Source: Flaccisagitta enflata
Lineage: Eukaryota
Direction of reading: 5' to 3'
NCBI GenBank assembly: GCA_965153355.1
Contig: OZ231126.1
Coordinates: 49,662,001 to 49,726,000, forward strand
Length of the DNA stretch: 64,000 nucleotides
The stretch's first letter is position 1; every line of letters begins with the position of its first letter. Shown here piece by piece: positions 24,922 through 56,365 of this stretch. Under the pieces are notes generated by a model. The model was not told the DNA's origin. It made no database searches and worked only from the letters and a program-made list of their open reading frames with translations. A program made the translations under genes and the position numbers.

Positions 24922-27834
24922 TTTTTTCATCATTTTTTTCTTTTCCATCGTCCTCTTCTTTTTCGTCTCATGCATTTCTCATGTTTTATGTGCCATTGGT
25001 CGTTACTCGTTAGTAGTTTGGTCTGTATGTATCGGAAATTTCCGCTTCATTGAGGCGCGATAAACATTATTGGTATTCGTTTCTCGCTTTTTCCCGCCTT
25101 CTTCCCCCGTCGTCTTTTTTTGCTCCCTTCATTCATGGAAGGGGAAAAACAAGAAAAATTAGTAAAAAGAATAAGAAAAGAAAAAAAGAAATGGGTGGGG
25201 AGGAAAAGAAAAGGAAATTAAATATAAAAAACTCAGTACTGCGTATTTCCATGCTGCGTCCTCGCATCACTATCAAGCAGATATCAGATATCAGGCGTTT
25301 GTGAGTTGGCTAATGACTTACGCCCAAGCAAGATATATGACAATGTGCTTTATTCACCGCAACTAACTGGTAACTAAGCTTTGTTTTTGATAAAGAATTA
25401 CTATCTGATAGAACATTCATTTTGGGCGCAACCCATATCCTTCAAAATTATAAGACCTTAAGTCAATCAAGGGGAACCTCCATAAAAACGGATACCTTAA
25501 GATGGTCAATCAACCAACATTACAAGACACGTAAAAAGATAAGACGGAAAACCACTAATGTCTTATGCAATGAAATTGTGGAAAGCCTACTTCCTGTTAG
25601 GCCAGTGAGATGAAATTTCGACCGAAATCTTCTGAAATATTTGGGCTACTTCAGTTGAAATTTGTTCACTAAAAGTATGCCTTTTTCACTCTTCCATTAT
25701 GTGGTTTTCCGCCTAATTTTTTCCACATGTGTTATCCTTGTTATCCATGTTTTACCGTTTTTGAGATTTTGGGCAATTCTCTGACTGCGAAACAAATGTC
25801 ACGGACCAACAAACGTACTGGTTGACTACCAAAGCCTCCATACGGAAAGAGAGTGTGAGTCGACATCTGAATAAAATAATTTCCTAGAGGAGCGACTGTT
25901 AGGAGGAGGAAGACTGCCTTCATAGGAAAGGAGGGGAATTTAAGATGCATGAAAAAATAAAAGGGAGGAAAATCAAATAATTTCAAGGCCGCCTAGACAT
26001 GGGTGCGTCTTGTGTGGATATGTGCGGGGTGGGGGCAAGAAGGAAGGGCGTAGGGTCTCGTTGGGTTATGAGGATCTCATGAAAAGCATAAACACAAACT
26101 CTCGATACGTTTACAATTTTGCAAATGCACTCGGATACAGAAACGCTGAGACAGAAATGGATGGATGATCAACTGATCATGAAGGAATGACCAACTCTTT
26201 AGAAGGGACGATTGACTCACTTGTGACTAGAGATCAACTTAAATGTCCCTCGGTTGGTTTTCACACCTTAGGCAGATGATTATATCACATAATATACGCC
26301 AATCTAACTACCTACCTTTCCCCTTGGTGATAAAGGGGTGACCAAGAAAGGGGCCTTAGGGAACATGGATGAGCTTGTAAGGAGATCGTGCTGGCGCCAC
26401 CATTTTTCACACTCCCTGCATGGGACCAACAAAAGCGCGGCGGCCACTCGGTTTGTTTAGGAGCACTCGAGCGTGCTGCAACGCCTGCACACCAAGACGC
26501 CAATTTCGTGGGGGCTATTCACCAGTCAGTGACTACTACAAATCAAAAGTCACAAAAGTATAGAGACACAACTAGCTCAATCTCTCTCTCTCTCTCTCTC
26601 TCTCTCAAATGAAGCTGGCGGGTCAAAGGTGCAACTGACCAACAATTTGAGGGGGAAAAACGTCCTTGCGTGGCGCGCGTCAAAAACAAAAACCCACCGC
26701 TTTCAATTTTTTTATTCCGGTTTCCCCCTCCAAATTGGATTATTATCGACAAATTTATGCCATCGAATTTCCAATTGTCATTAATTTGAGGTTTAAGCCA
26801 ATCATTTGAAAGCTTGTCACATTATTTCTTTCGTCGGAATAATGAACACATAATCAAAAATGAAATTAAGATAAAAAAAATCACCGTGTTGAAAGAAGTT
26901 AAATTTGAACCCCGCAATAACGGATGCCAAGGGAGTATGTGTGTTTTAGCAGCACCATTGGCCCAGCAGCCCCCTTGACTCTTAAAGAGCCAGAAATAGG
27001 AGATAGTCACAGCAGCCCCTTAGCAGCCCCCTATGTTTTTGTTAAGTAGGGAAAGGATCAGCAGCCCCTTAGACCTCTCAGCAGCCCCCCCCTTAAAAAC
27101 ACTGGGATATACTCAGCAGCCCCCCAGCAGCCCCTATTCTCAACATTGCAGTGAAGTCTAGCAGCCCTATCTTACAACTGTGGGGATAGGACCAGCAGCC
27201 CCCCAGCAGCCCCCTAATTCAAATACTGGGATAGACTCAGCAGCCCCCCGGCAGCCTTTATACTCCTCATTGCAGTTAAGACTAGCAGCACTATCTTACA
27301 ACTCTGGGGATAGGACCAGCAGCCCCCCAGCAGCCCCCAACTAGAAACATTGGGATAGACACAGCAGCCCCCCAGCAGCCCCCACTATCAGTATATGTGT
27401 TGATTTTAAGTCTAGCAGCCCCTTCTACAACTCTGGGGATAGGACCAGCAGCCCCCCAGCAGCTACCCACTACAAATACGGGGATAGACTCAGCAGCCCC
27501 CCAGCAGCCCCTAGACTCAACATTGCAGTGAAGTCTAGCAGCCCTATCTTACAACTGTGGGGATAGGACCAGCAGCCCCCCAGCAGCCCCCCACTACAAA
27601 TACGGGGATAGACTCAGCAGCCCCCCAGCAGCCCCTAGACTCAACATTGCAGTGAAGTCTAGCAGCCCTATCTTACAACTGTGGGGATAGGACCAGCAGC
27701 CCCCCAGCAGCCCCCCAATTCAAATACTGGGATAGACTCAGCAGCCCCCCGGCAGCCTTTATACTCCTCATTGCAGTTAAGACTAGCAGCACTATCTTAC
27801 AACTCTGGGGATAGGACCAGCAGCCCCCCAGCAG

Positions 27835-28182
27835 TACGTCCCGTGAAGCGCCCCAAACTTTGACTATGGCTCTCACCAATCTTACCACAGTTGAGGCTTG
27901 GTAAAAAAACATTCCATGCAAAATTTTGGGCCTCTGAGATAGCAGGAACCTTCGTCAGGGTGAGGTTGAAGTTTGTATTGAATTAACATTGGAATCAATA
28001 TTTCTTTTATGCAAATTTTGTCTCTGCCATAGGTTTCTATGGAAACTTCATGGTCACCCTGACAAAGGTTCCTGCTGTTCCAGAGGCCTGAAATTTTGCA
28101 TGGGATGTTTTTTTACCAAACCTCAACCATGGTAAGATTGGTGAGAGTCAGCGTCGAAGTTTGGGGCGGTTCATGGGACGTA
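27835..28182. mobile_element. 348-bp palindromic MITE, TACGT...ACGTA termini, 8-bp TSD
   Basis: CCCAGCAG at 27827-27834 and 28183-28190; ~130-bp imperfect TIRs. Confidence 0.93.
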
Positions 28183-28493
28183 CCCAGCAGCCTCCAACTA
28201 GAAACATTGGGATAGACACAGCAGCCCCCCAGCAGCCCCCATTATCAGTATGTGTGTTGATTTTAAGTCTAGCAGCCCCTTCTACAACTTTGGGGATAGG
28301 ACCAGCAGCCCCCCAGCAGCCCCCCACTACAAATACGGGGATAGACTCAGCAGCCCCCCAGCAGCCCCTAGACTCAACATTGCAGTGAAGTCTAGCAGCC
28401 CTATCTTACAACTGTGGGGATAGGAACAGCAGCCCCCCAGCAGCCCCCCACTTAAAAATACGGGGATAGACTCAGCAGCCCCCCAGCAGCCCC

Positions 28494-28875
28494 TGTCAGG
28501 TTTAAAGTCCCCGCTGACTGTATCTGGTCAACCCTAGTTTCAGTATCGCCTAAGTATCTATTCAAATGAGTCGAAACGCGCGTAACTTTACGGACTTTAG
28601 CTTTATTCCGAATTGGTTACACTGTAAAGGAAAAGAAAGTATCATGAGAAACTGACAAATAGTGACAGACTGACATACTGACTGACAATTCATTACCGCA
28701 ATAACATACCGAGGTATTCGACGTAATATTCCAACAGATGTCAAATATCAATTTGGTTCAAGAAGATGATTCTTACGACTATCAAGCTAAGAAGGATTCA
28801 GAAGTCTAAAAGCATTATCTATCAATCTGTCTATCATCCGCGTAGTCTCTGTGATTCGACGATGCGTAACTAACA
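28494..28875 (-). repeat. 3' LTR
   Basis: Direct repeat of 38145-38526; minus-strand AATAAA at 28602-28607. Confidence 0.98.
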
Positions 28876-29653
28876 CCACCACCAATCAATGGTGGATTGA
28901 TTTCACTCCAACGTATCGTCCTTCCAGGTTCCGGTTCCAGCTCTGTTGTCTTGCTGCGGCTCCGGCGTGCAGCAGCAGTCGAAAGGCGGCAACTCCGTTG
29001 ATCAGTCGGTACTTCCGCGAAATTTGTTTCCAGATCCATTTTGACGTTCTTATCCAACTCCAGCATTCGTATCCAACTCCAGCATTCGTATCCAACTCCA
29101 GCATTCAGACAGACGGCTAGTTTGAATGTTTTCCATTCAAAGGGCTTGCTAATCATGTTCAGTAATTGATCCCATTACTTAAGATAAATAATGATCCGTG
29201 GACTAGCTTATGAATGATAAACCATTCATCTCATCATATATCTCTTTGTTTGTGTTTGAATACAATTGATTAAGAGAACAAAACGCTTTTTCTATTTAAG
29301 CATAAAGTAGAAGGGAGGCAGTGAAGGAGGCGAAGGCAAAAAGAGCAAGAATAAGGGAGAATCAATCTGTCGCCGAATTATCCTAGGCTCACAGATATAT
29401 AAAAAAATTGATCAAGGAAGTTTGGGAAAATGGGTCCAGCAAAGGGGGAAGGTTTCATTTTCGGGTTCAGACATAAATGGGGGTTTGTTAAAAATGAAAT
29501 AATTTCGCGTGTAGCAGCGGGGCATCTGAATTTCTCCCCGGCAGTAGCGATCAAAGTTGCGAGGTGTGATGCAGATGTAGCCCAGGTCAATCCCTGGGCG
29601 TAGTTTGGGGAGCGGACTGTGATAGCCTGAGGGAGATAAGGGAAATTTCAAGC

Positions 29654-30663
29654 TCAGATTAAACTGTTATTTTGCCAATTTCTACGCTTGATTCGATCGC
29701 GCTCTCTTTTCATTTCTTCAAGACGGCGCTTCATTCCTCGAACAGAGTTTTCCTGTTCCATAACAGCAGCTTCTAGTGTGCAAATCGCCCTTTTGAGGTA
29801 ATGATCCGCATTACCGTTATGAATGTAGCCTGAGACGATATTTCCCGAGTCTTGGGAGAAGTCGAGGATCGCGGCTTCCGAAGGTCGCGCGCGAGGTTGA
29901 CCCTCCGCTGGGACGACGGTCACGTCGGCAACATCGGCGGGATGCTCGGTCGTGAGATCGATGGACTCGACCGGTGGGAGGTTATCAGACTGTAAAGAGG
30001 AGGGAAATAATGATGAGTCTGAGGTACTTTTGCTAGGTAAATGTAAAGGCGTTTGTTTCCCGTAGAAATTGATATTAGTGATTTTAGATTTTACCTCCGT
30101 CGAAGGTGGTGTGGGTTCGGCGGTGGTGCATGAGGGCGACGCTGTGAAGCTTCTCAGCAGTCGCACGTCGGCTGCGTGTATTTGTCTGTTGTGGGGAAGG
30201 TGATAATGGATAAGGATACCTTATCATCATGTTGTTATATGCAAGTGTCTTGTCAAACGCTTAACATTTGGTTGCACTTACTATCTCCAAATTTTACGAG
30301 TCCAACGTTGTAGTCGTAGTCCTCTATGTCCTTCAGATCGTCGTCGTCGCTAGCGGCAGCAGCGGTGACAGCAGCAGCGGCGTCTTCCGTCGCAGCGGCG
30401 TCTTCCGTCGCAGCGGCAGAAGCAGCGGCGCTTCGGTTGTCGTCGTCGTCTGTGACGGCGCAGTCGCTGTCGATCAATTCCTCTTCGTCGTCGTCGGGTC
30501 CCGTGACGAGGACGTCCGGAATCGAATCTTTCTTCTGAGGGGAATAGTGGTTAAGTTGAGGATAATGGTTTTTCCTATGGGGTTGTGAGTGAATCGTCAT
30601 TTAGAGAGAAAGAAGAATTAATGGTTCCATTAATTCATTTACCTCAACGATACGCCTATCCAT
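29654..30663 (-). CDS. Putative spliced accessory gene in the LTR element; exons 30643-30663, 30282-30534, 30095-30171, 29654-29989 (228 aa; acidic N-terminal half, coiled-coil-like C-terminus)
   Basis: Three GT-AG introns of 108, 110 and 105 nt with compatible phases (0,1,0) join three ORF-track fragments into one frame. Confidence 0.7.
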
Positions 30664-31000
30664 GATGAGAGAGGAGGAGGAGGCGATGATGCGTGTGAGG
30701 AGGTGAGGAAGAGGAGGAGGAGGGGGCGCGGGATTGTTGTTGTTATTGTCACTGTTGATTGTTTGTTTTTGTTTTTTGATGAGAGTATAGCTAAACACTC
30801 TGTTGAGCAAAGGAAATCAATGAGAGGAAGTTTTAGCAAAGTTTGAAATGTAATTTAATGACAGAGGATAATTTTAGCGGAGGAAATCAAAGAAGGAAAG
30901 TTTTAATGAGGATGAGATTTCTAAAAGAGGCGATTTGAAACTTAAATGTAATTTGGCGACATAGGATGATATTTGAGAGATACTAATGATTTCCATTAGT

Positions 31001-32374
31001 TTATTCATCCAGTTCCAAAGGGACGATTTTACACAGATGTCTTTCGAGTTTTGTCCCATTTGGTAAGTCAATTTCCACTCGGCGAACATGATTCTTATCG
31101 GCGGTAAGAATCTTACTTATCCTCCCAATTCGCCAGAGCTCGCGCGGCTGAAGCTCATCAACTAGGATGACTAATTGTCCCAGGCGCGGATTTTTTGTGG
31201 AGGACGTCCACTTTGTCCGTCGTTGCAATTCAATCACATATTCTTGTTGCCAACGTTGCCAGAATTCTTCGATGACTTCGCGGACGCGGCGCCATGAAGC
31301 CCTCAAGTGATCACCTGAGGATAATGGAGGAAGGATATTGACAGAGGTAGGTGTGATCATGTACGGGTACAAGAAGTTAGCGGGAGAAAGAGTTTGAGGG
31401 TCTGAGGGATCAGAAGACATAGGGGTGATAGGTCTGCGATTCAAAATCCCCATGACCTCTGACAAGATAGTTTCAAAACTGTCAAGGTCAAGTTCGCTTT
31501 TTTGCTCATAAATGATAGCTGCAATGTGTTTTTTAGCGCTTTGTACACAGCGCTCCCAAACTCCACCCGCGTGAGGGGTGTGGGGTGGACCAAAATGCCA
31601 AGTCAGTCCCTTGACAGCTAGTTCTTTGTTTGTCTGTTCGTTGTCCCAGAGTGCAACACTTTCAGCCAATTCTCGGGATGCCCATTTGAAGTTTGAACCA
31701 CAATCACACCAAAGTGATTCAAGGCCCGGGAATTGATTGTGAAACCGAATCAGAGCATTTATGAAAGATTCCGTTGACATGTCTTTCAAACTGATCAGAC
31801 TAATGGCCCTTGTTGAAAAACAAGTAAACAATAACACATAGCGTTTCTTTAACCCTCTGCCTGTGTACTTTAGGGAAAAGGGACCAAAAACGTCGCAACC
31901 TGTTTCAGCAAAGGGCTGGGTGAGTTCTAACCTTTCTGCTGGGAGATCGGCCTCCCGCTGGTGTTGTGGTTGTTTGTCTCTCCTTTGGCAGTAGGTGCAA
32001 GTGTCCACAACGCGTTTGATGGCCGATTTTCCGCCAAAGATAAAGAACCTTTGGAGTAATCCGTGGAAGGTCTGTAAACGAGAGGAATGAGCGTTAGATT
32101 CATGTTCAAAACGGATAAGAGATTTAACAATCTCTTCTTTGCATGGGTTGGGAAGAATCAAAGAGAATTTTTGGTCAAAGGAGTAAGTGGTGGAATTTCC
32201 CAGCCTTCCACCCGTCCTTAAACAGAGGTTTTCATCGAGAAATGGGCTCAAATTTCTCAGGTGAGAATCTTTCCTTCTCAATTCAAATTGGGCGTTGGGT
32301 GTATTGACCCCCAACTTGACCAAAGACTCAATTTCAGGTTGGAAATGTTTGTACTGAATCGCACGTACTATCAT
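31001..32374 (-). CDS. BEL integrase region (HHCC, DDE core, C-terminal domain), frameshifted from the rest of pol
   Basis: HESNAH..CTYC; DVFGP; CDCGSNF; GGVWER; FWQRWQQEY. Confidence 0.95.
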   Translation of the reverse strand: MIVRAIQYKHFQPEIESLVKLGVNTPNAQFELRRKDSHLRNLSPFLDENLCLRTGGRLGNSTTYSFDQKFSLILPNPCKEEIVKSLIRFEHESNAHSSRLQTFHGLLQRFFIFGGKSAIKRVVDTCTYCQRRDKQPQHQREADLPAERLELTQPFAETGCDVFGPFSLKYTGRGLKKRYVLLFTCFSTRAISLISLKDMSTESFINALIRFHNQFPGLESLWCDCGSNFKWASRELAESVALWDNEQTNKELAVKGLTWHFGPPHTPHAGGVWERCVQSAKKHIAAIIYEQKSELDLDSFETILSEVMGILNRRPITPMSSDPSDPQTLSPANFLYPYMITPTSVNILPPLSSGDHLRASWRRVREVIEEFWQRWQQEYVIELQRRTKWTSSTKNPRLGQLVILVDELQPRELWRIGRISKILTADKNHVRRVEIDLPNGTKLERHLCKIVPLELDE

Positions 32375-35330
32375 TGTCTAGAAAACTAGGTTTCAATTTC
32401 CTCTCCTTCTTATCTTTCACATTAAAAATGCGTTTGGCACTGTCATTGTCTAGAAAACTAGGTTTCAATTTCCTCTCCTTCTTATCTTTCACATTAAAAA
32501 TGCGTTTGGCACTGAGAAACAAAAAACGCGAAAAGATCGCTACTCTTCTCACCTTTTTGTCCCAATGTTCAATTTTCTTTGTCACTTCCAACGACCAGTG
32601 AGGAGGAGGAGGAGAAGGAGGAGGAGGAATTGAAGGGATTTCCCTTTCCGCTTCATCTACTCTGATTGTGAGTAGTTCCAGTGGAGAAAATTCTGCTTCG
32701 CGGCTTGCTTCCATCGCGGCAGGATTGTTCGCTTTTTGCGGAGTGGGCGTGATGGGCCAATTTTCCATTGGCTCTCGCAAATAGTCCGGCCCTGAATGAA
32801 ATGGAGTCCATCTAGGGTCACCAGCGGTCAATCCACGAGAGCACCAATCCGCGGGATTGTGCTCTCCTGGAATGTGTTTCCATTCCAACGTGTCCGTCAG
32901 AGTCCAGATGTCTTTGAGTCTGAAATGTTCATAGGTTTTCTTTCGTCCGTCATAGTCATTGAGCCAGTTGATGACGCACATTGAATCTGTCATCAGAATC
33001 ATCTTTGAGTAGTTTTCCCCAGAGAGTCTTACTAATTCATCTCGTTTTCTGGCTAAAAGACGGGCAGCTTCAAGTTCAATTTTTGGGATAGAATCTTTAT
33101 GATCTTCCTGATTTTTCAAAATTCGTTTGTGCATGTTCAGGGGGACAACATGCGACTTGCTCAGTAAAAAGGCTACATGGGCGGGCTTATCCCCCCCACC
33201 TTTTACTGATTTACGGACATAGATAATACACCCATATCCTACTAAACTCGCATCACTGAAGCCCACAAGCCAGTTTTCAGCGTCTTCATAACCCAGAGCT
33301 GAGGTCCATCTGGATATTCTCAAATTTCTCAAGTTTTGCAAAGAGATCCGCCAGTCATTAACCTCTTTGCGCATTTCTGTTGGTAATTCTTCATCGTACT
33401 TCAAACCCATATCATTGACAATTTGGTACAAAATTTTCCCTTGTAATGTACAAGGGGCGTAAGCTCCATAAGGATCGAAATTACTGGCAGTTAAACGCAA
33501 AAAATCTCTTCTAGTCAAAACTGGCACATCGGCTTTAGCCGAGACTCTGACATAGAGTGAATCAGTTTTAGGGTCATACCCAGTTCCCAATATCTTACTT
33601 GTTGGGGTGGTTTCACTCGTCGGTTTCATCATATTGTTCACGTCCTGTTTGAAATATTCGGGAGTATGGAATATTTCACTGATTTTTTCTACGTTTCCTT
33701 CGCCGTCGAATTCTTCAAAATCGACTTCCAAGGGCTCGGCGAAGTTCTCATCCTCCTCCGGCTCTGTCACGTGATTTTCCACGTCATTTTTCTGAGGAGA
33801 AGAATCAGTTTCATCGGTTAAAATTTCAGGGTAGGGTGACTCCCACTTGGTGAGTTCAAACCCACCAAGCTTACAAGCCATGGTCAAGTCTTTCCGCATT
33901 TGTCTGGCTTCCTCAATGGAGTCTAGACTGTCAATATAATCGTCCATGTAAAATTGCTCTAGAATGGCGCGCACAATATCGCTCACAAACAGGTCAGCTA
34001 CCTCTTTGGCGTGATGTTGGAGCGTGAAGTTCGATACTGGAGGGCTGCTGGAAGCTCCAAAAATGTGCACAAGATGTTCGGCCACGACGATGTTTTCCAT
34101 CGTCTCACTTTCAAACCACAGAAACCTGAATGCAGAAATGTCAAGGGGGTGGATTAAAATTTGGTGAAAGAATCCTTTCACGTCCGCGCTGAGTGGATAT
34201 CTTTTCCTCCGCCAGCGCCACAGTACCCCAAGTAAGTTGTTAAGTAGATCCGGGCCACTTAACAATTCACCATTCAAGAAAATGCCTTTGTTCTTGGAGG
34301 CGGCGTCTAGACAAATTCTATATTTATTTGGCTTATCAGCCCGCCAAACTACGTGTATAGGTAAGTATACGCATGGGCTTCCTTCTGGTGCTTTCAGGTC
34401 AGTAATGATTCGTGCATGTCCAAGTGAAAGAGTTTCATTCATTTGGGCAAAGACACCAGCCTTTCTAACGGGATCCTTCTCAAATTTGACTTTTTCTTTC
34501 AATAATCTATTCTTAGCATTTGTAAAAGTGTCAACGGAGTTCAACCTTTTGGCTGCAGCTTCCCTCCCATTTTTCCATGGGACGCCGCATACCCAATGGC
34601 CTGATTCTAAATCAAAATATAGTGTATCCTTCATTTGTTTCAAAGAATAGTAATCATTTACTGAAAGATGGGTTTGTTCAGGGGAAAAGGCTTCATGACC
34701 TTTCATGATAAAATCATGTCTTAGCATGTAATCAACTTCCTTCTGTAGTGATTTTTCTTCTGTTTCAATCATAGCAAATCCCGTAGAAAGACTAGTGGTT
34801 TTATCCAAGGTTTCTAATGGGGGTCCAATGAGACACCAAGAGAACATAGTCTTGATTGCGAGAGGTTTAGATTCACTTTCAAATCTAAATTCATTTGTCG
34901 CCCAAGTATAGGCATATCGTGATCCCAATATCACCCCAATGGTTTTATTAGGCAATTCTTCAATGGTTATATCTGAAAGGTAATCTAACCCTTTCACATC
35001 ACTTTGACCTAAAGGTCTTTCGTTTTCAGCGGAGAGAATATTTCCCACCAGAGCTTTATTGACATCGATAGAAAAAGAGCCATCTAAAGGTTCAACTGTG
35101 AATTTAGCAAATTCAGTGTCAGGGTTATAAATTTTAGAGTTGAAAGTTGACAAGTTGCATGGTCTGGATTCAATTTCAGCATCAATTTCATATGCCACTT
35201 CATCTAAAATAGCTTCACAAGTGGCTCCTGAATCTAAAAGGGCGTAAGTAGTAGTGGAGCGATCCCCCCACTTAACTCGCACTGGCACTACAGGGCGAAT
35301 CGCACCACGTTCTACAAACGCCGCCGCTAG
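32334..35330 (-). CDS. pol: BEL pol: aspartic protease, reverse transcriptase, RNase H
   Basis: ALLDSGAT; RICLDAA, ADVKGFFHQI, FGASSSP, FYMDD; GFSDAS..GYG, IPKIELEAA, MTDS, NPADWCSRG. The frame opens right after the gag stop. Confidence 0.97.
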   Translation of the reverse strand, partial: LAAAFVERGAIRPVVPVRVKWGDRSTTTYALLDSGATCEAILDEVAYEIDAEIESRPCNLSTFNSKIYNPDTEFAKFTVEPLDGSFSIDVNKALVGNILSAENERPLGQSDVKGLDYLSDITIEELPNKTIGVILGSRYAYTWATNEFRFESESKPLAIKTMFSWCLIGPPLETLDKTTSLSTGFAMIETEEKSLQKEVDYMLRHDFIMKGHEAFSPEQTHLSVNDYYSLKQMKDTLYFDLESGHWVCGVPWKNGREAAAKRLNSVDTFTNAKNRLLKEKVKFEKDPVRKAGVFAQMNETLSLGHARIITDLKAPEGSPCVYLPIHVVWRADKPNKYRICLDAASKNKGIFLNGELLSGPDLLNNLLGVLWRWRRKRYPLSADVKGFFHQILIHPLDISAFRFLWFESETMENIVVAEHLVHIFGASSSPPVSNFTLQHHAKEVADLFVSDIVRAILEQFYMDDYIDSLDSIEEARQMRKDLTMACKLGGFELTKWESPYPEILTDETDSSPQKNDVENHVTEPEEDENFAEPLEVDFEEFDGEGNVEKISEIFHTPEYFKQDVNNMMKPTSETTPTSKILGTGYDPKTDSLYVRVSAKADVPVLTRRDFLRLTASNFDPYGAYAPCTLQGKILYQIVNDMGLKYDEELPTEMRKEVNDWRISLQNLRNLRISRWTSALGYEDAENWLVGFSDASLVGYGCIIYVRKSVKGGGDKPAHVAFLLSKSHVVPLNMHKRILKNQEDHKDSIPKIELEAARLLARKRDELVRLSGENYSKMILMTDSMCVINWLNDYDGRKKTYEHFRLKDIWTLTDTLEWKHIPGEHNPADWCSRGLTAGDPRWTPFHSGPDYLREPMENWPITPTPQKANNPAAMEASREAEFSPLELLTIRVDEAEREIPSIPPPPSPPPPHWSLEVTKKIEHWDKKVRRVAIFSRFLFLSAKRIFNVKDKKERKLKPSFLDNDSAKRIFNVKDKKERKLKPSFLDNDSTCDSVQTFPT

Positions 35331-37952
35331 TCATTTCTTTTCTACCGAAGGCTTTCCTTCGGGTCTTTCTGCACCATGCAACAGGTCATGGTGGCGTTTG
35401 CCACAAACTGAGCAAGTTTGATCTGAGGGACATGAGGAGGCCATGTGGCCCTTGCATAAGCATCTGTAGCAATAACCCTTGCTAAAACATAGGATAAACT
35501 TTTTGTCGCTGTCAATAAAGCTCTTACACTGGTCCAAACAGTGTTGCTCTTTGCCGTTACATACCTGGCATGAAGGAGGATCAGAAGGATTTTTTCCTTC
35601 TGGTTTTCCCGGTCGTTTGTCATTTCTTGGTCCGGTTTTTTGTTTCATGTGCTGTCGCTTCGGCGCGGCCGCAGCAGCAGCAGCAGCTGCAACGACCTCC
35701 GTGTCGATTTCTTCGTCGCATTCTTCAGAGTCGTCTTCGTCGGCCTCTGGATTCACGGCCGCGATACGGGCCGTCGTTTTCTTGTGTCCATTTCTGTGAA
35801 AGGACTGGGATCCATTCCCCCCAACGGATTTCCCATTGGGAGTCTGTCCGCCCGCGGTCTTAGCAGCCGCGGCCGATTGGTCGGAAATTTCCGCCTTCCT
35901 CTCCGCAATCCTGTATTGGGTTTTTAAGAAGGCAAGGAAATCTTTAAATGTTATGTCAGGAATATCCTGACCATCTCTCAAAAAACGATCTTCGTGTTTT
36001 TGGCTTTCTACTGCCCAACGCAAAATCAGAGAGGGCAGTTTCTTATTCAAGACTGTATTATATGTGTCTGAGGTGTTGAACGTGGCTTCCCGGTTTGTTT
36101 CAATCGATCTGAGGTGGGCATTTTGCAGGTGGAAAATGAAAGTCTGTAAGGCTTTATGATCTTTGGCATTGATCTGAGGCCCGGTCAACGTGTCATCTAA
36201 CATTTTTCTAGCTGTGTCCTTTCTACGTCCATATTCAGCCTTTAATTGTGTCAGGGTTCTGTCTATGTTTTCTTGTGCATTTGTTCCATTGCTATAGTTT
36301 TTAACAATGATGCCGGCGGGCCCACCAAACCAATGTTTAAGTTCCAAGGCTATCATTGTAGGGTTTGACCCCTCAATCTGTGTCACTTGGTGGAATTCTT
36401 GTACATGGGATTCAAAATCGATTCTCTTGTCTAAACCCGTGAAAACCTTGTCCTTCGGGGGACGGTTTTGAGACATGAGTTGGTGAGCAAGCAGGGCTTG
36501 TTGGCTAACTGCTACTTTATCGGTCGAGGTTTGGGCAGTGTGAACACTGCTCTTTGGTGGTTCGGGTTGGTGTATTGGTGGGTCTTTAGGTTGGTGGTAG
36601 GAGGGGTAGGTGTAACTATGATCTGACCAGGTCACATTTGTGGACGTGGAAGTTGGTTTCACTACATATGGGGTCCCGGTCGGTACGTAGATTGTGTTTC
36701 CTATGGTGATGTATGCTGGGGCTTCAATTGTTCGGGGCGGAAGGTGTGGACCATCCTCATGACTTATCTGAAAGGTTCTGTAGGCTGGGTTTTGAGGTCT
36801 TGGGGGTGACGCGGTTGTCCCTGAGAGTTTCATTAGGTTCTCCCTAATGTTAGAGGTCTGATCTGAGGTTGGGGTCGGGTTCCTTTTCTGGTTTGAATTT
36901 GAGGTCATATCTGAGGTCGTATTTTCTGGCAGATTCGCCCCCAGGGTCTGATCCCCTGGGGAGGAAGTGGTCTTGGTCGCTACCCCGGGGGGTGGTGGGA
37001 TAGAATCTACGAGTGGGTTATCAGCCACAATGTTGTCCGAGTTACTTTGCTTACCTACGGTAGAGTCCAAGGGCGACGGAGTAGGAGTGGTGTTCAGAGG
37101 CGTTTCCTCCGTCAAATTCGCGTTGTTGTTGTTCCAAGTCTCAACCTTGGAAGTGACTGAATCGGCCTTGACCGACTTTGATTCGATCGATTCTATTTCT
37201 TCGCTTATTTCGGCGAGGCCCTCTCTTCTCCTGGCCGCGTTTTTCAAGGCTCTCCTTTTAAATTTTTCCTCTTGGGTTTGGAATCTGATTTCCAATTCGT
37301 CCTTTTTTGCTTCAAACTCGCGTTCCATCTCCAATCTCATGGCTTCCAACTGTCTCTCCTTCTCGAGTCTCTCGGCCTCGAGTTTCCTTTCTAAGTTGCG
37401 CTTCGCCGCGTCGGATTTTTTCTTGTCTAGAGATAAATCTCCTTCATCTTCCTGGAAGCGTTCTTCTATGGCGTTCTGACGTGCGACCATTTCGCAACGG
37501 GACGTAGAAGATAGAGATTGGGATTTTCGGCTCGAGGCACGGGGGTTGTCCCCCCGGCGTTCGGATGGCGTTTTGGCGGCGCCGGTGGTGCTTCCATCAT
37601 GCGCCGGCGGCGGATCATTTACGTTCGCGGCGATGTCAAGCGCGGGGAGGTCGGTGAACGTGGGTTTCGTCGCTAAAATATTTTCTATCTCGGTGATTCT
37701 ATCAGTGACGCTATCGGCGCATTGTTGCGAGACGGCGTCGGTCGGTCTAAATTGTCGGAGCGAATTTAAAACGCCTTCTAGGGCGTCGCGTCGTTCATTC
37801 GATACTCGTTTCAAAGCGACGTCTTCGTTGTCTACGGTTGCGGCATACGCCGCTTTGAATTCTGTTATCAGTTTGTTCGCGTTTCTTACGTATTTGCGTG
37901 CGGCTCTATCGTCCACGACAGGATCGGCGAACAGATTTAAGCGTTGATCCAT
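35331..37952 (-). CDS. gag: BEL Gag (873 aa) with three C-terminal Cys/His knuckles
   Basis: CQVC..H..C, CYRC..H..C, CSVC..HH..H; N-terminal coiled-coil-like stretch. Confidence 0.95.
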   Translation of the reverse strand: MDQRLNLFADPVVDDRAARKYVRNANKLITEFKAAYAATVDNEDVALKRVSNERRDALEGVLNSLRQFRPTDAVSQQCADSVTDRITEIENILATKPTFTDLPALDIAANVNDPPPAHDGSTTGAAKTPSERRGDNPRASSRKSQSLSSTSRCEMVARQNAIEERFQEDEGDLSLDKKKSDAAKRNLERKLEAERLEKERQLEAMRLEMEREFEAKKDELEIRFQTQEEKFKRRALKNAARRREGLAEISEEIESIESKSVKADSVTSKVETWNNNNANLTEETPLNTTPTPSPLDSTVGKQSNSDNIVADNPLVDSIPPPPGVATKTTSSPGDQTLGANLPENTTSDMTSNSNQKRNPTPTSDQTSNIRENLMKLSGTTASPPRPQNPAYRTFQISHEDGPHLPPRTIEAPAYITIGNTIYVPTGTPYVVKPTSTSTNVTWSDHSYTYPSYHQPKDPPIHQPEPPKSSVHTAQTSTDKVAVSQQALLAHQLMSQNRPPKDKVFTGLDKRIDFESHVQEFHQVTQIEGSNPTMIALELKHWFGGPAGIIVKNYSNGTNAQENIDRTLTQLKAEYGRRKDTARKMLDDTLTGPQINAKDHKALQTFIFHLQNAHLRSIETNREATFNTSDTYNTVLNKKLPSLILRWAVESQKHEDRFLRDGQDIPDITFKDFLAFLKTQYRIAERKAEISDQSAAAAKTAGGQTPNGKSVGGNGSQSFHRNGHKKTTARIAAVNPEADEDDSEECDEEIDTEVVAAAAAAAAAPKRQHMKQKTGPRNDKRPGKPEGKNPSDPPSCQVCNGKEQHCLDQCKSFIDSDKKFILCFSKGYCYRCLCKGHMASSCPSDQTCSVCGKRHHDLLHGAERPEGKPSVEKK

Positions 37953-38144
37953 ATTTGTTTACCTCTTATTTTCTTTCGTTGATAGCAAGTCGATGAGAAT
38001 CTTCTTCTTCGTAGTTCTGTTTTCCGGAGGGTCTTTTTCGATGGAGTTGACACAAAGGCGATCAGAAACAAAAGGGCAATCGTGTTCGGGTCCTTCCAAG
38101 ACTTTCCCTTGGAAGAGGTTCTCACGCGAGAATAACTCGTGTAA

Positions 38145-38526
38145 TGTCAGGTTTAAAGTCCCCGCTGACTGTATCTGGTCAACCCTAGTTTCAGTATCGC
38201 CTAAGTATCTATTCAAATGAGTCGAAACGCGCGTAACTTTACGGACTTTAGCTTTATTCCGAATTGGTTACACTGTAAAGGAAAAGAAAGTATCATGAGA
38301 AACTGACAAATAGTGACAGACTGACATACTGACTGACAATTCATTACCGCAATAACATACCGAGGTATTCGACGTAATATTCCAACAGATGTCAAATATC
38401 AATTTGGTTCAAGAAGATGATTCTTACGACTATCAAGCTAAGAAGGATTCAGAAGTCTAAAAGCATTATCTATCAATCTGTCTATCATCCGCGTAGTCTC
38501 TGTGATTCGACGATGCGTAACTAACA
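38145..38526 (-). repeat. 5' LTR
   Basis: Direct repeat of 28494-28875. Confidence 0.98.
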
Positions 38527-41125
38527 GCCCCTAGACTCAACATTGCAGTAAAGTCTAGCAGCCCTATCTTACAACTGTAGGGATAGGACCAGCAGCCCCC
38601 CAGCAGCCCCCCAATTCAAATACTGGGATAGACTCAGCAGCCCCCCGGCAGCCTTTATACTCCTCATTGCAGTTAAGACTAGCAGCACTATCTTACAACT
38701 CTGGGGATAGGACCAGCAGCCCCCCAGCAGCCCCCAACTAGAAACATTGGGATAGACACAGCAGCCCCCCAGCAGCCCCCATTATCAGTATGTGTGTTGA
38801 TTTTAAGTCTAGCAGCCCCTTCTACAACTCTGGGGATAGGACCAGCAGCCCCCCAGCAGCCCCCCACTACAAATACGGGGATAGACTCAGCAGCCCCCCA
38901 GCAGCCCCTAGACTCAACATTGCAGTGAAGTCTAGCAGCCCTATCTTACAACTGTGGGGATAGGACCAGCAGCCCCCCAGCAGCCCCCCACTACAAATAC
39001 GGGGATAGACTCAGCAGCCCCCCAGCAGCCCCTAGACTCAACATTGCAGTGAAGTCTAGCAGCCCTATCTTACAACTGTGGGGATAGGACCAGCAGCCCC
39101 CCAGCAGCCCCCCAATTCAAATACTGGGATAGACTCAGCAGCCCCCCGGCAGCCTTTATACTCCTCATTGCAGTTAAGACTAGCAGCACTATCTTACAAC
39201 TCTGGGGATAGGACCAGCAGCCCCCCAGCAGCCCCCAACTAGAAACATTGGGATAGACACAGCAGCCCCCCAGCAGCCCCCATTATCAGTATGTGTGTTG
39301 ATTTTAAGTCTAGCAGCCCCTTCTACAACTCTGGGGATAGGACCAGCAGCCCCCCAGCAGCCCCCCACTACAAATACGGGGATAGACTCAGCAGCCCCCC
39401 AGCAGCCCCTAGACTCAACATTGCAGTGAAGTCTAGCAGCCCTATCTTACAACTGTGGGGATAGGACCAGCAGCCCCCCAGCAGCCCCCACTACAAATAC
39501 GGGGATAGACTCAGCAGCCCCCCAGCAGCCCCTAGACTCAACATTGCAGTGAAGTCTAGCAGCCCTATCTTACAACTGTGGGGATAGGACCAGCAGCCCC
39601 CCAGCAGCCCCCCACTACAAATACGGGGATAGACTCAGCAGCCCCCCAGCAGCCCCTAGACTCAACATTGCAGTGAAGTCTAGCAGCCCTATCTTACAAC
39701 TGTGGGGATAGGACCAGCAGCCCCCCAGCAGCCCCCCAATTCAAATACTGGGATAGACTCAGCAGCCCCCCGGCAGCCTTTATACTCCTCATTGCAGTTA
39801 AGACTAGCAGCACTATCTTACAACTCTGGGGATAGGACCAGCAGCCCCCCAGCAGCCCCCAACTAGAAACATTGGGATAGACACAGCAGCCCCCCAGCAG
39901 CCCCCATTATCAGTATGTGTGTTGATTTTAAGTCTAGCAGCCCCTTCTACAACTCTGGGGATAGGACCAGCAGCCCCCCAGCAGCCCCCCACTACAAATA
40001 CAGGGATAGACTCAGCAGCCCCCCAGCAGCCCCTAGACTCAACATTGCAGTGAAGTCTAGCAGCCCTATCTTACAACTGTGGGGATAGGACCAGCAGCCC
40101 CCCAGCAGCCCCCCAATTCAAATACTGGGATAGACTCAGCAGCCCCCCGGCAGCCTTTATACTCCTCATTGCAGTTAAGACTAGCAGCACTATCTTACAA
40201 CTCTGGGGATAGGACCAGCAGCCCCCCAGCAGCCCCCAACTAGAAACATTGGGATAGACACAGCAGCCCCCCAGCAGCCCCCATTATCAGTATGTGTGTT
40301 GATTTTAAGTCTAGCAGCCCCTTCTACAACTCTGGGGATAGGACCAGCAGCCCCCCAGCAGCCCCCCACTACAAATACGGGGATAGACTCAGCAGCCCCC
40401 CAGCAGCCCCTAGACTCAACATTGCAGTGAAGTCTAGCAGCCCTATCTTACAACTGTGGGGATAGGACCAGCAGCCCCCCAGCAGCCCCCCAATTCAAAT
40501 ACTGGGATAGACTCCTCATTACGCTGATTGCATCGCCGACTTATGTCAAATCACGTCATTGCGACCAAGTTTTAATGTACCTTTGCAAAAATGTGACCAA
40601 ATGAGCCTATGCGCAACATTCCAAACATTCGGGAACCTTTTTTAGGGCGCGGTCTAAGATAAGAGGGTTGAATGTGAGTGAGGTACTGTATAGTAAAGAT
40701 GATTATTGCGTAGCATACACAGTCCAACCGTCTTAAAGGACGTATCCGGACCAGTAGAAAAAATATAAAATTCCGATAAATGCTGTTTTCTATTCCTGAT
40801 GACTTCCTGAGTCGCTGTATAAAATTTCAGCCCTCTAGCTCTACTAGATCGCTGTTTTTAGTGCCCCAAAGAAACCCGTGTTTTGTGGACGATCAGGGAA
40901 AAAAAGAAGACGAAATAAAAAGTTGCTCCGGGGTTCGAATTCCAGCAATAAGAATTTGAAAAGTTTCAAGTCAGCAATGCTAACCACTTGACCAAACACG
41001 TTCGCTGCACCAGATGGATATTTTGGTTGTATGTAATCTCCGGAGGCCAACGAGTTGGAGCAAAAAATGAGGAAGACTATTTTTTACGCATGCTTTGGCG
41101 TGAATATTGGTTGCAACTCAATCTT

Positions 41126-48620: not shown

Positions 48621-51600
48621 ATTTTTTTTTCGGTGTGTGTGTGACTATGTATGTGTGTACGTGCTTGTGTTTGTGTGCATGTGTGCATGTGGGTGTTTGC
48701 GTGTCCTCGTGTGCATTTATCCGCATGGGTGTTATTTTTGCATGTATGCTGCTGATCATGAGTTCATATATTTCTATTTGTGTGGGACATTTGGTTTTTC
48801 ATGTAGTTGGGGATCCTGCATAGGAGATGGGACAAACGTGAAGCAAATAAATCACGGCTACCCCAGTCGAGTGCGGGTAGGCAGGGGCCGTATTTGAGTC
48901 TTGAAGCTAGGATTTGGGCTTCAAAGCCAGGAGGAGAAAAAGAAAGGGGAGGTGTCCCTTATGTGTTTTAACATCGGTCATTGGACCCTTGGAGGGGAGT
49001 GCTGCCCAAAAGTCAATCAAGACTGACCAACCAACCGAGTTTTGAACCAACTGACTGACCAACAGACGGACAAAGCGGGATGTGGAGTCACCATGAGAGA
49101 GAGACCACCTTAAAAACGTAAGCTATAAAAATTTTTTTCTTTTTTCTTTACTCTCTCCCCAAAAAAAATCTGTGAAAAAGGCCGCCAATCTGAAGAAAGT
49201 AGAGTCGGGAAACCCCTTTCTCTAACAAGTTGATCTCATGCTTGGAAAAAACTCAAATTCGCGAATCATTAACTTTATCCACGTGGAGATATATCCAAAA
49301 CTAGTGGATAAGTAAAAAAAAAGATATCCACGTGGAATAGTTTTCCAAAATTAGTGGATATTAAAAAATGATGTTTTGTAGATGTAGCATTATGATTTAT
49401 AACTAGTGGCAAAAAATGAATTCAACTTTGTTCTGTTTTCATTTATTTAACTGAAAAAAAAAAAACAATAATTCAATGAACTTTTCCTACTTAGAAATAT
49501 ATTTACAATCCCTGCATAATGACTAATTAAACTGCTTAGAAATCAGTATTTAGGACAGAAATCTCATTTCTTTTTCTAATTGGTGTGTAACACTCAGCTC
49601 AACTGTATTGATGAATAATTAACATTCAGAACTTTTGATTTCACCGCCTTTCCCTTGTCTAATTTTCATTCAAAACATTCTCTGTTATTGAATAAGAAGA
49701 AAACGACTGTCTTAAACATCAACAGGTGATGTTAGATAGACGAAGGAAGTCGTCGTCTTTCAGGGCAATTCATCAGAAATCCTTTTCACTCTTAACTTAA
49801 TAGAAAGAAATAGGAAAAAAACAAAACAAAGAAAATTCTGAACTTCATGAAATATGCAGGGTAAGACCCCTTTTTAGCCTCCCCCAGCGGCACGAGTTTT
49901 TATTCATGAGGGGGCTCATGAGGAAAGATGAAAAAAAAAAATAGACAAGGAAATTTGAACAAATATAAGTTGAAAAAAGAAGACCCCAAAATCACATCAT
50001 TTTTTCCAGTAAATCATTTTTTTTTTAACCCTATAGTGGATTTAAGCAAATATCTACAGAGACAGTTTTAAAAAACGCAAGCTAATGGCACTAGGAAGAA
50101 ATTCAGAACTAAAAAGAAATCATTGTAAGCCACATTGTTGTTAATTTCTTTTTATTATATTGTTTTACGGTCATGCTATGCCCATGCCCATGCCCTGTCT
50201 TTTACATACATGCTTTTAATTAAGAGTAATGTCCCTTATTTTGGATATATTTCTTCCTTAAGAAAGAACAGGCTTAGAACAAGAAAGAACACCAGTTTTA
50301 GATATCAGCAAACGCAACAAAGAAGCTGAGTAATCCTTAATTCTCGAGAAAGCTGATATTGAGAATTCATTATTTTACAGAGAAAGTGCTGCTTAGAGCA
50401 TGATTTGGGCTTGTGGTCGCTTATTCAGCATCATTCAAAAGAAGAATATCAGATAGTCGTTCAATTATGCCTAGAAATTGACAGAAAGTGCAGATTGAAA
50501 AATGCAAAAGAATCGTATGGACTGATCATCCACAAAGCAATATAAAAAAAAAGATATTGACGATGGTAAAAAGGCTCTTGGAAAACTGCTGGCCATACCA
50601 TTTGAGAAGAACGGTGAACATGGGAGAAATCTTGTTAATATTTTAATCATCAGAGAAGTAAGACTTGGCTGAAAGACTGAATTTATATGAAGATCGATTT
50701 TGTGAGTAGGGGCTGCCGGGCAACTGTTAAGTCCATACCAGTGTCTGTAATTGGGGGGCTGCTGGGGGCTGCTGATCCAATCCCCAGAGTTGTAAGAGGG
50801 GCAGCTAGACTTAACACCAGAGTTGATAATGGGGGCTGCTAGGGGGCTGCTGAGTCTATCCCAGTATGATTAGTGGGGAGCTGCTGGGGGGCTGCTGGTC
50901 CTATCCCCAGATTTGCAGGGAAGGCTGCTAGACTTAAATCCATTTCGATAATGGGGGCAGCTGAGGGGCTGCTGTGTCTATCCCAGCGTTTCTAGTCGGG
51001 GGCTGCTGGGAGTTGCTGGTCCCATCCCCAGAGTTGTAAGATAGTGCTGCTAGACTAAACTGAAATGTCAAGTATAAAGGCTGCTAGGTGGCTGCTGAGT
51101 CTCTCCCAATATAAGTAGTAAGGGGCTGCTGGGGGGCTGCTGGTCCTATCCCAAGAGTTGTAGGAGAAGGCTGCTAGACTAAAAATCAGTTATGAAAATG
51201 GGGGCTGCTGAGAGGCTGCTGTCTCTATCCCAGTGCTTGTAGTCAAGGGCTAACAGGGTGCTGCTGGTCCCATCCCCAGAGTTGTAGGAAAGTGCTGCTA
51301 GACTTAACTGCAATGCTGAGTCTGTCCAAGTATTTGTAGAGGGGGTCTGCTGGGGGCTGCTGGTTCTATCCCCAGAGTTGTGGGAGGGGGCTGCTAGACT
51401 CAAAATCAATAAATGTACTGATGATGGGGGCTGCTGGGGGGCTGCTGTGTCTATCCCAATGTTTCTAGGTAGGGGCTGCTGAGGGGGCTTCTGGTCCTAT
51501 CCCCAGGGTTGTAAGATAGTGCTGCTAGACATAAATGCAATGTCGAGTATACGGGCTGCTTGGGGGCTGCTGAGTCTATCCCTGTATTTGAAGTGGGGGG

Positions 51601-54600: not shown

Positions 54601-56365
54601 CTGGGGGGCTGCTGAGTCTAGCCCCATATTTTTAGTTGGGGGCTGCTGGGGGGCTGCTGGTCCTATCCCCAGAGTTGTAAGATAGTGCTGCTAGACTTCA
54701 CTCAAATGTTGAGTATAGGGGCTGCGGTGGGGGGGGCTGCTTAGTCTATCCCAGTATTTGTAGTGGGGGGGTGCTGGGGGGCTGCTGATCCCATTCCCAC
54801 AGTTAGAAGACAGGGCTGCTAGACTTAACTGCATTGTTGAGTATAGGGGCTGCTGGGGGGCTGCTGGTCCTTTTCCCAGAGTTGTAGAAGGGGCTGCTAG
54901 ACTTAAAATCAACACACATACTGATAATGGGGGCTGCTGTGTCTATCCCAATGTTTCTAGTTGGGGGCTGCTGGGGGGCTGCTGGTCCTATCCCCAGAGT
55001 TGTAAGATAGTGCTGCTAGACTTCACTGCAATGTTGAGTATAGGGGCTGCTGGGGGGCTGCTGAGTCTATCCCAGTATTTGTAGTCGGGGGCTGCTGGGG
55101 GGCTGCTGGTCCTATCCCCAGAGTTGTAAGATAGTGCTGCTAGTCTTAACTGCAATGTGGAGTATAAAGGCTGCTGGGGGGCTGCTGAGTCTATCCCAGA
55201 ATTTGAATTGGGGGGCTGCTGGGGGGCTAATGGTCCTATCCCCAGAGTTGTAGAAGGGGCTGCTAGACTCAAAATCAACACACATACTGATAATGGGGGC
55301 TGCTGGGGGGCTGCTGTGTCTATCCCAATGTTTCTAGTTGGGGGCTGCTGGGGGGCTGCTGGTCCTATCCCCAAAGTTGTAAGATAGTGCTGCTAGACTT
55401 CACTGCAATGTTGATTAAAGGGGCTGCTTGGGGGCTGCTGAGTCTATCCCAGTATTTGTAGTGGGGGGCTGCTGGGGGGCTGCTGGTCCTATCCCCAGAG
55501 TTGTAAGATAGTGCTGCTAGTCTTAACTGCAATGAGGAGTATAAAGGCTGCTGGGGGGCTGCTGAGTCTATCCCAGTATTTGAATTAGGGGGCTGCTGGT
55601 GGGCTGCTGATCCTATCCCCAGAGTTGTAAGATAGTGCTGCTAGACTTCACTGCAATGTTGAGTATGGGGGCTACTCGGGGGCTGCTGAGTCTATCCCAG
55701 TATTTGTAGTGGGGGGCTGCTGGGGGGCTGCTGGTCCTATCCCCAGAGTTGTAAGATAGTGCTGCTAGTCTTAACTGCAATGTGGAGTATAAAGGCTGCT
55801 GGGGGGCTGCTGAGTCTATCCCAGTATTTGAATGGGGGGGTTGCTGGGGGGCTGCTGGTCATATCCCCAGAGTTGTAGAAGGGGCTGCTAGACTTAAAAT
55901 CAACACGCATACTGATAATGGGGGCTGCTGGGGGGCCGCTGTGTCTATCCCAATGTTTCTAGTTGGGGGCTGCTGGGGGGCTGCTGGTCCTATCCCCAGA
56001 GTTGTAAGATAGTGCTGCTAGACTTCACTGCAATGTTGAGTATAGGGGCTGCTGGGGGGCTGCTGAGTCTATCCCAGTATTTGTAGTTGGGGGCTGCTGG
56101 GGGGCTGCTGGTCCTATCCGCAGAGTTGTAAGATAGTGCTGCTAGTCTTAACTGCAATGTGGAGTATTTAGGCTGCTGCTGGGCAGCTGAGTCTATCCCC
56201 GTATTTATAGTGGGGGGCTGCTGGGGGGCTGCGGGTCCTATCCCTACAGTTGTAGAAGGGATTGCTAGACTTAAAATCAATACACATACTGATAATGGGG
56301 GCTGCTGGGGAGCTGCTGTGTCTATCTCAATGTTTCTAGTTGGGGGCTGCTGGGGGGCTGCTGGT

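Follow-up and report, generated by a model that had tools for sequence, protein, structure and literature searches.

A conserved and probably spliced accessory gene between integrase and 3′ long terminal repeat of a BEL/Pao retrotransposon, internally deleted in the copy analysed

The 64,000-nucleotide (nt) stretch of Flaccisagitta enflata contig OZ231126.1 analysed here (positions 49,662,001 to 49,726,000; hereafter the window) carries on its minus strand, at 28494-38526, a long terminal repeat (LTR) retrotransposon of 10,033 bp that belongs to BEL/Pao. An accessory gene lies on the sense strand of this element, between the integrase stop (31001) and the 3′ LTR (28875). A reading made from the letters of the window alone (the sequence-only reading) had placed here a multi-exon gene with three uniform introns and a product of 228 amino acids, thought to be a regulator of the complex-retrovirus kind or a captured host gene. 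The open reading frames (ORFs), GT/AG sites, phases and 228-residue product that it described are all in the window sequence, and the comparisons below support a protein gene that lies on the sense strand between integrase and 3′ LTR, is specific to the family and is not env. The 228-residue product and the exact acceptor of intron 2, on the other hand, prove to be features of an internally deleted copy and not of the native gene. As read in the window copy, with a slash marking the exon-intron boundary, the parts of the gene are as follows.

30643-30663, minus strand: exon 1, 7 codons, ATG at 30663-30661 with A at −3 and G at +4
30535-30642, minus strand: putative intron 1, 108 nt, GAG/GTAAAT...CCCCTCAG
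30282-30534, minus strand: exon 2, acidic, Ala-rich, isoelectric point (pI) 4.05, low complexity
30172-30281, minus strand: putative intron 2 as first proposed, 110 nt, A/GTAAGT...ACGCAG
30186-30281, minus strand: putative intron 2 if the upstream acceptor is used, 96 nt, A/GTAAGT...CCCCACAACAG, with two in-frame stops inside
30161-30166, minus strand: deletion junction, 5 nt in the window against 537 nt (179 codons) in other copies
30095-30171, minus strand: exon 3 as first proposed, what is left of an exon that measures ~623 nt in the long form
29990-30094, minus strand: putative intron 3, 105 nt, GAG/GTAAAA...TTTACAG, in frame and open
29654-29989, minus strand: exon 4, 111 codons and TGA (29654-29656), the conserved core

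Joined, the four window exons give a coding sequence of 687 nt, or 228 amino acids, and the earlier statement that intron 3 is in frame was borne out, its 105 nt being open throughout. Exon 2 is rich in trinucleotide repeats and can be read without stops in several frames and on either strand, so its ORF taken alone is weak evidence for a gene. The exon-2 frame also has its own ATG within "intron 1", at about 30600 (ORF 30600-30253), and intron 1 is therefore not strictly required. A database protein, P0003, is 94% identical to exon 2, with two in-frame indels, both at repeat units.

Other copies of the element have a longer gene. Contigs of two DNA sequencing runs, X1 and X2, align to the region as copies of about 98% identity, and both leave the match to the window at 30161/30166, five bases into exon 3 as first proposed, to run on beyond the junction for at least 173 to 419 letters unlike the window. 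A search for longer proteins gave one match among 1046 candidates, P0008, of 368 amino acids, which is 97% identical to the window from just past the junction to the stop, reads through intron 3, and has 179 extra residues upstream of the junction. Two 30-nt loose ends of the contigs translate exactly to residues 22-31 and 191-200 of P0008, and both strings are absent from the window. Judged against these copies, the window copy has lost 532 nt (the net difference, which is not a multiple of 3) from the middle of the accessory gene, and with them the part that encodes a predicted basic helical domain and a proline-rich linker.

The deletion also bears on where intron 2 would end. Exon 2 and the long frame of the other copies are in the same frame, separated only by the two stops inside the A/GTAAGT...AG interval. 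The acceptor AG at 30172 joins exon 2 to the long frame out of frame, whereas an AG at 30186, 14 nt upstream, right after a CCTTCCCC tract and flagged by an acceptor scan, joins them in frame. In the deleted window copy the 30186 acceptor leads to a stop after ~101 codons; the frame of this copy is rescued only by the downstream AG at 30172, hence the 228-residue combination of the sequence-only reading. By count, the native product would be about 410 codons, and the 228-residue model is, on this comparison of copies, a by-product of the deleted one. The introns are also less uniform than had been thought, since the acceptor that fits the long form makes intron 2 96 nt long.

One could instead take the 228-residue form as native, with four exons and introns of 108, 110 and 105 nt, and the long form as carrying an insertion, which we consider quite improbable. 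Every site and phase of that model is present in the window, and the copy is young, with identical LTRs. But the frame of exon 4 stays open through all 179 codons of the extra 537 nt, the predicted helical domain included; the long form is found in X1, X2 and P0008, and the short junction in none of the contigs listed; a difference that is not a multiple of 3 means that the two forms cannot share an acceptor in frame; and the AG just upstream of the model's own intron-2 acceptor has the better tract.

The best-conserved part of the gene is exon 4. The 188-codon frame that runs through exon 3, intron 3 and exon 4, used in a word-indexed search of 5.8 billion proteins, yielded two relatives among 94 candidates, P0001 and P0002. 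P0001 is 72% identical to the exon-4 region over 117 aligned positions and stops at the same C-terminal place; P0002 is 88% identical over 89 residues, and P0008 has an exon-4 identity of 97%. The sole indel of the exon-4 region against its relatives is one of 3 codons. A profile of the relatives, run against 1.84 billion representative proteins, had two true matches and found nothing beyond the element's own family. We rejected as a homologue P0007 (profile E-value 9.5e-6), a repeat protein of 2960 amino acids in which one motif of 23-26 residues was matched. DNA of a diverged subfamily was sought in JGI metagenome contigs, with a profile and then with P0008, and in one scan of IMG/VR, and no relative was found in either.

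The boundary of this conservation coincides with the predicted acceptor. Similarity to P0001, P0004 and P0005, which form the 72% subfamily, starts within 6 residues of the predicted exon-4 acceptor AG, and upstream of it P0001 and the window are unrelated. Among themselves, P0001, P0004 and P0005 are identical through exon 4 and divergent upstream, one of them being wholly different over its first 10 residues. Frames of the P0001 type open just 22-28 residues before exon 4, in unrelated sequence. The residues of P0001 upstream of exon 4 are nearly all Leu, Ile, Phe, Pro and Ser, a composition that suggests a pyrimidine tract at this place in the DNA of P0001. The translation of pyrimidine-rich DNA 3′ of the gene's stop, at 29310-29366, matches the non-conserved N-terminus of P0001 with 58% identity over 24 aligned positions (E 0.005), a likeness that is probably a compositional effect.

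The sister copies of X1 and X2 allow substitutions to be classified. Of their 293 differences from the window, 40 were listed; 33 of these were classified and the other 7, at 28939-29490 in the 3′ untranslated region, were left out. Exon 4 has at least 9 differences from the X1 and X2 copies, and among those listed 7 are synonymous changes at third positions and the other 2 are conservative replacements (I>V, S>T); by chance, 7 or more of 9 would fall at third positions with a probability of 0.008. The four exons together have 13 listed differences, 9 of them synonymous (including the only one in exon 1), against 4 of 11 in integrase; intron 1 has 3 listed substitutions. With 72-97% amino-acid identity kept, similarity starting at the acceptor, and 7 of 9 listed differences synonymous, exon 4 is, by all that these alignments tell, a real coding exon under purifying selection, conserved between subfamilies.

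This pattern bears on two other views of the region. It might be a decaying remnant, of env for instance, or a non-coding spacer with chance ORFs, and the low complexity of exon 2, the lack of any family match and the damage to the window copy would suit such a view. It is nevertheless very unlikely, given the synonymous bias of exon 4, the 72% identity with a common stop and only an in-frame indel, the 368 open codons of P0008, and the lack of transmembrane or signal features. Equally, the region might be a fragment of a host gene captured together with its introns, as the multi-exon anatomy and the lack of relation to env would allow. We rate this as quite improbable: all relatives look like copies of the element's accessory region (2 of 94, 1 of 1303 and 1 of 1046 candidates, and the two true matches among 1.84 billion representatives, in libraries from which the host proteome may be absent), and the region is contiguous with integrase and LTR in the sister contigs. 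The earlier suggestion of a captured host gene is thus without support, no relative outside copies of the element having been found among the 1.84 billion representative proteins.

The arrangement of splice motifs suggests how the gene would be expressed. The 10,033-nt sense strand of the element has only 5 strong donor motifs, namely the three predicted donors of the accessory gene, one in gag, and a GAG/GTAAAC before the gag ATG. That three of five fall within 10% of the element has a probability of ~0.009, calculated post hoc. GTAAGT occurs once on the sense strand, at the donor of intron 2, and the acceptor of intron 3 has 14 pyrimidines out of 14 followed by ACAG. The frame of P0008 has no Met after residue 1 until residue 333, and its first Met is in frame only through a copy-specific 1-nt indel in the C-run of intron 2. 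Because the long frame has no conserved start and is cut off from the upstream ATG exons by two stops that lie in the GTAAGT...AG interval, splicing is the simplest route to its expression, and on these features the accessory gene is probably spliced. Two further sites could supply the 5′ part of the mRNA.

37961-37965, minus strand: donor-like site GAG/GTAAAC in the leader; it would place the start of the intron at 37962, 10 nt upstream of the gag ATG (37952)
30799-30817, minus strand: acceptor-like site, TTTCCTTTGCTCAACAG followed by AG, the AG ending at 30800; its use is presumed

The leader site is a candidate major 5′ splice donor for a subgenomic mRNA, and the ATG of exon 1, which stands in a strong context, is the first ATG downstream of the acceptor-like site at 30800. 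Such donors and acceptors would suit a subgenomic mRNA in the style of retroviruses, from which two or three short introns are then removed.

The predicted protein lacks the envelope features that were looked for. Kyte-Doolittle means over 19 residues peak at 0.42 in exons 2 and 4 and at 0.58 in P0008, which upholds the earlier observation that signal peptide and transmembrane segment are lacking and that the gene is not env-like. No Pfam match with E at or below 0.01, to an env family or otherwise, was found for the accessory ORFs of the window, and P0008 had two matches only, at E 0.086 and 0.21. A sequence search of the PDB with P0008 gave nothing below E 1.8, and the ESM Atlas held no usable match for exon 4 and gave scores of at most 0.78 for residues 18-100 of P0008. 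In the AlphaFold model of P0008 a small basic helical domain (helices at 19-89) is followed by a proline-rich linker and a long C-terminal helix (318-367). The basic domain has a pI of ~10 and the linker is 38% proline. The C-terminal helix, of ~50 residues, is confidently predicted (predicted local distance difference test score, pLDDT, up to 96), and in its sequence hydrophobic residues can be read at heptad spacing. A basic cluster, KRRLEEMKRERDRIKRR, lies in exon 4 within this predicted helix and is kept in all three subfamilies. A fold search with the whole P0008 model returned just non-specific matches of the single-helix or coiled-coil kind, all to residues 314-368 and with Z no higher than 6.3; complex prediction for self-association of the exon-4 region scored 0.34, against 0.32 for one control. 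From these features we infer a soluble, probably nuclear, self-associating adaptor that would act in trans on element RNA or on host factors.

Taken together, these observations lead us to favour, with somewhat more belief than doubt, a conserved post-integrase, non-env gene that needs splicing, that is internally deleted in the window copy, that is likely to be expressed from a subgenomic mRNA, and that encodes an adaptor protein. The stop-bearing interval between A/GTAAGT and the pyrimidine-tract AG would be removed by splicing, as would a further intron before the conserved last exon, and perhaps another through which the short ATG-bearing exon 1 is joined. The mRNA would most likely be subgenomic, made either by a splice from the leader donor just before the gag ATG to the acceptor ~135 nt before the ATG of the gene or from an internal promoter. 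We propose that the introns outlast retrotransposition because reverse transcription uses only unspliced RNA, as it does in retroviruses. The protein would have an acidic low-complexity N-terminus, then the small basic helical domain and the proline-rich linker, both gone from the window copy, and a conserved C-terminal region ending in the heptad-repeat helix with its basic cluster, which resembles a bipartite nuclear localisation signal (NLS). Such an adaptor might act in the manner of CERV of the Cer1 retrotransposon or of retroviral Rev. The sequences themselves show that the gene is there, that it is conserved and under coding-type selection, how its splice motifs are laid out, and that the window copy is deleted; splicing as such, the source of the mRNA, and the localisation and function of the protein are inferred.

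Several findings weigh against this reading. Intron 3 has no listed differences in the sister copies, and so seems no less constrained than the exons, and all the copies that show introns 1 and 2 are at least 94% identical. The substitution counts cover 40 of 293 differences overall and 12 of 13 for the X2 contig over exon 4. Open frames come cheaply in the low-complexity exon 2 and in the proline-rich part, and the total number of donor motifs on the element is not above that of shuffled sequences (4, where shuffles average 5.8). P0008 is a single sequence whose source may overlap that of run X1, and its AlphaFold model is poor overall (mean pLDDT 55). No RNA runs were listed as matching 29000-31400, and none of the junctions is crossed by the 18 contigs of two metatranscriptome runs, X18 and X20. 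Most of these contigs match only the CCT/AAC low-complexity stretch at 30667-30776, at less than 90% identity; the exact pieces are 29051-29097 in X18 and 29059-29106 and 32091-32254 in X20, and may be DNA carry-over.

Some of these points would be expected if nothing within the gene were spliced. The conserved sequence would then be an unspliced ORF, either the frame of the P0008 type or just exon 4, read from a subgenomic or internal-promoter RNA with an unconventional or copy-specific start, while the acidic ORF would be separate or meaningless and the GT/AG sites coincidental. In its favour are intron 3, open, in frame and free of listed differences; the in-frame ATG in the copy of P0008; the low complexity of exon 2, which has its own ATG; and the lack of junction reads in the X18 and X20 contigs. 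However, the long frame has no conserved ATG, that of P0008 being in frame only through the 1-nt indel, copies of the P0001 type have a short, unrelated frame ahead of exon 4, and the only sense GTAAGT of the element stands exactly where two stops need to be bypassed. We judge expression without internal splicing to be unlikely, if still to be taken seriously, and retain the spliced accessory gene as our working model.

How unusual would such a gene be? Among BEL/Pao elements, Cer7, Tas and roo bear env. The accessory gene has the same position as env in these elements, but it lacks a signal peptide and a transmembrane segment, and it matches no env family. In complex retroviruses, the Rev, Rex and Tat accessory genes have small introns in the 3′ portion of the genome and are expressed from multiply spliced mRNAs; their products are small regulators, basic or oligomerising. 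The gene described here would be like them in its small putative introns in the 3′ portion and in its protein, predicted to be basic or oligomerising, and its conserved basic cluster, lying in the predicted long helix, might answer to the arginine-rich RNA-binding or NLS motif of Rev-like export factors. It differs in having no homology to them and no identified response element, and in belonging to a retrotransposon of invertebrate type that has no env.

The nearest precedent is CERV of Cer1, a Ty3/gypsy element of C. elegans. CERV is a lineage-specific, non-env protein of 517 amino acids that is encoded in env position and made from a five-exon spliced mRNA; it has a leucine zipper or coiled coil, a candidate basic NLS, and structured domains on flexible linkers, is nuclear, and is required for export of the unspliced genomic RNA (PMC10309623). 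Like CERV (PMC10309623), the gene described here is a sense ORF that takes the place of env without being env and lacks known relatives beyond its own lineage, and the zipper or coiled coil and candidate basic NLS of CERV would have their counterpart in the heptad helix and basic cluster predicted here. There are differences as well. Cer1 belongs to Ty3/gypsy and the element in the window to BEL/Pao. Exons 1-3 of CERV are described as shared with gag (PMC10309623), whereas the ATG exon here (30663-30643) lies 3′ of the integrase stop, and as the leader donor precedes the gag ATG, no gag codons would be shared. The GTPase-like domain and Cys-rich ring-forming domain reported for CERV were not seen here, and the multiple splicing reported for its mRNA (PMC10309623) is predicted for the present gene from splice-motif anatomy. 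No sequence similarity to CERV was detected in the general profile search of 1.84 billion representatives, in which the presence of CERV itself was not checked.

Extra sense ORFs after pol are described as common in rotifer and plant elements (PMC5408684, PMC7264820), and the ORF3s of Juno, Vesta, TelKA and Mag of bdelloid rotifers are said there to be "typically expressed from spliced messages" (PMC5408684). Those ORF3s are described as single ORFs reached by one long splice, whereas short introns would interrupt the ORF itself in the present gene. With ORF3 messages and CERV as described in those sources (PMC5408684, PMC10309623), a spliced accessory gene is less unprecedented than the sequence-only reading implied. 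A literature search, which was not exhaustive, found no BEL/Pao accessory gene with internal introns.

A wider idea can be stated, though we think it rather unlikely: that a BEL/Pao lineage of a marine animal independently evolved a strategy like that of complex retroviruses, with a multiply spliced, nuclear, self-associating regulator that aids export or use of the intron-containing genomic RNA, and with copies that have the gene deleted, such as the one in the window, spreading by use of the protein in trans. Should splicing be confirmed, this would be a third lineage of LTR retroelements with internally introned accessory genes, after complex retroviruses and one Ty3/gypsy element (Cer1), and, if true, would argue that regulators of intron-containing genomic RNA arise repeatedly wherever LTR elements use splicing. 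The gene also offers for testing a conserved orphan protein with a basic helical domain, a proline-rich linker and a coiled-coil and basic C-terminus. For annotation the lesson is that a gene model drawn from one retrotransposon copy may be an artefact of internal deletion; here the sister copies altered both the product (about 410 codons instead of 228) and one splice site.

The other parts of the element are these.

38145-38526, minus strand: 5′ LTR, 382 bp, TGTTAG...CTGACA, 100% identical to 28494-28875 over 382 nt
35331-37958, minus strand: gag ORF (ATG 37952), ending in the in-frame TGA 35333-35331; its DUF1759 match is weak
32334-35330, minus strand: pol ORF, with reverse transcriptase and the Pao "peptidase A17" region
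31001-32377, minus strand: integrase ORF, in a different frame from pol, with Integrase_H2C2 and DUF5641
28876-29653, minus strand: 3′ untranslated region up to the LTR, also present in the sister copies, with a short tandem repeat at 29051-29106
28494-28875, minus strand: 3′ LTR, 382 bp

The LTRs begin with TG and end with CA and are flanked by a short target-site duplication of 5 bp, GGGGC (38531-38527 and 28493-28489), as is usual for BEL/Pao. Assignment to BEL/Pao was made from the Pfam domains: Peptidase_A17 (E 8e-26, 91 bits against a cutoff of 22.3), DUF5641 (E 3e-22, 79 bits) and Integrase_H2C2 (E 3e-8, 34 bits) are above their cutoffs, while RVT_1 (E 2.5e-5) and the gag domain DUF1759 (E 3e-4, 21.2 bits against 25.4) are weak and below theirs. 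With identical LTRs and the target-site duplication, the element is young. No second copy of it was found in the window, whose repeat-rich sequence also yielded no intron-bearing host gene for a comparison of intron sizes.

The gag ORF has 875 codons, of which ~540 precede the weak DUF1759 match and encode a charged coiled-coil-like segment and long Ser/Thr/Pro-rich runs. The in-frame TGA at 35331-35333 separates gag from pol, and the frame changes from pol to integrase near 32370. Just upstream of this change is a tandem duplication of 72 nt (24 codons) at 32367-32514, in an element whose LTRs are still identical. The tandem repeat at 29051-29106 in the 3′ untranslated region is present as exact 47-48-nt contigs in both metatranscriptome runs, X18 and X20. 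The spacer from the integrase stop to the accessory gene (30810-30990) contains two imperfect units of ~75 nt, AAATTACATTT... and TTGATTTCCT..., spotted by eye, and this spacer might serve as a regulatory or internal-promoter region.

Much of the window consists of a 124-nt satellite, which has higher-order periods of 253 and 377 and is present in both orientations (27079-28494, 38525-40514, 50754-56365 and 59219-63975). The element sits inside one of the satellite arrays, whose phase carries on across the insertion. We considered whether the arrays adjoining the element might be parts of its LTRs (27079-28875 and 38145-40514) and rejected this, the arrays being flanking satellite. Far from the element, at 1438-2505, an ORF of 355 codons has a weak match to GIY-YIG (E 0.0012, below cutoff) and may be the remnant of a Penelope-like element.

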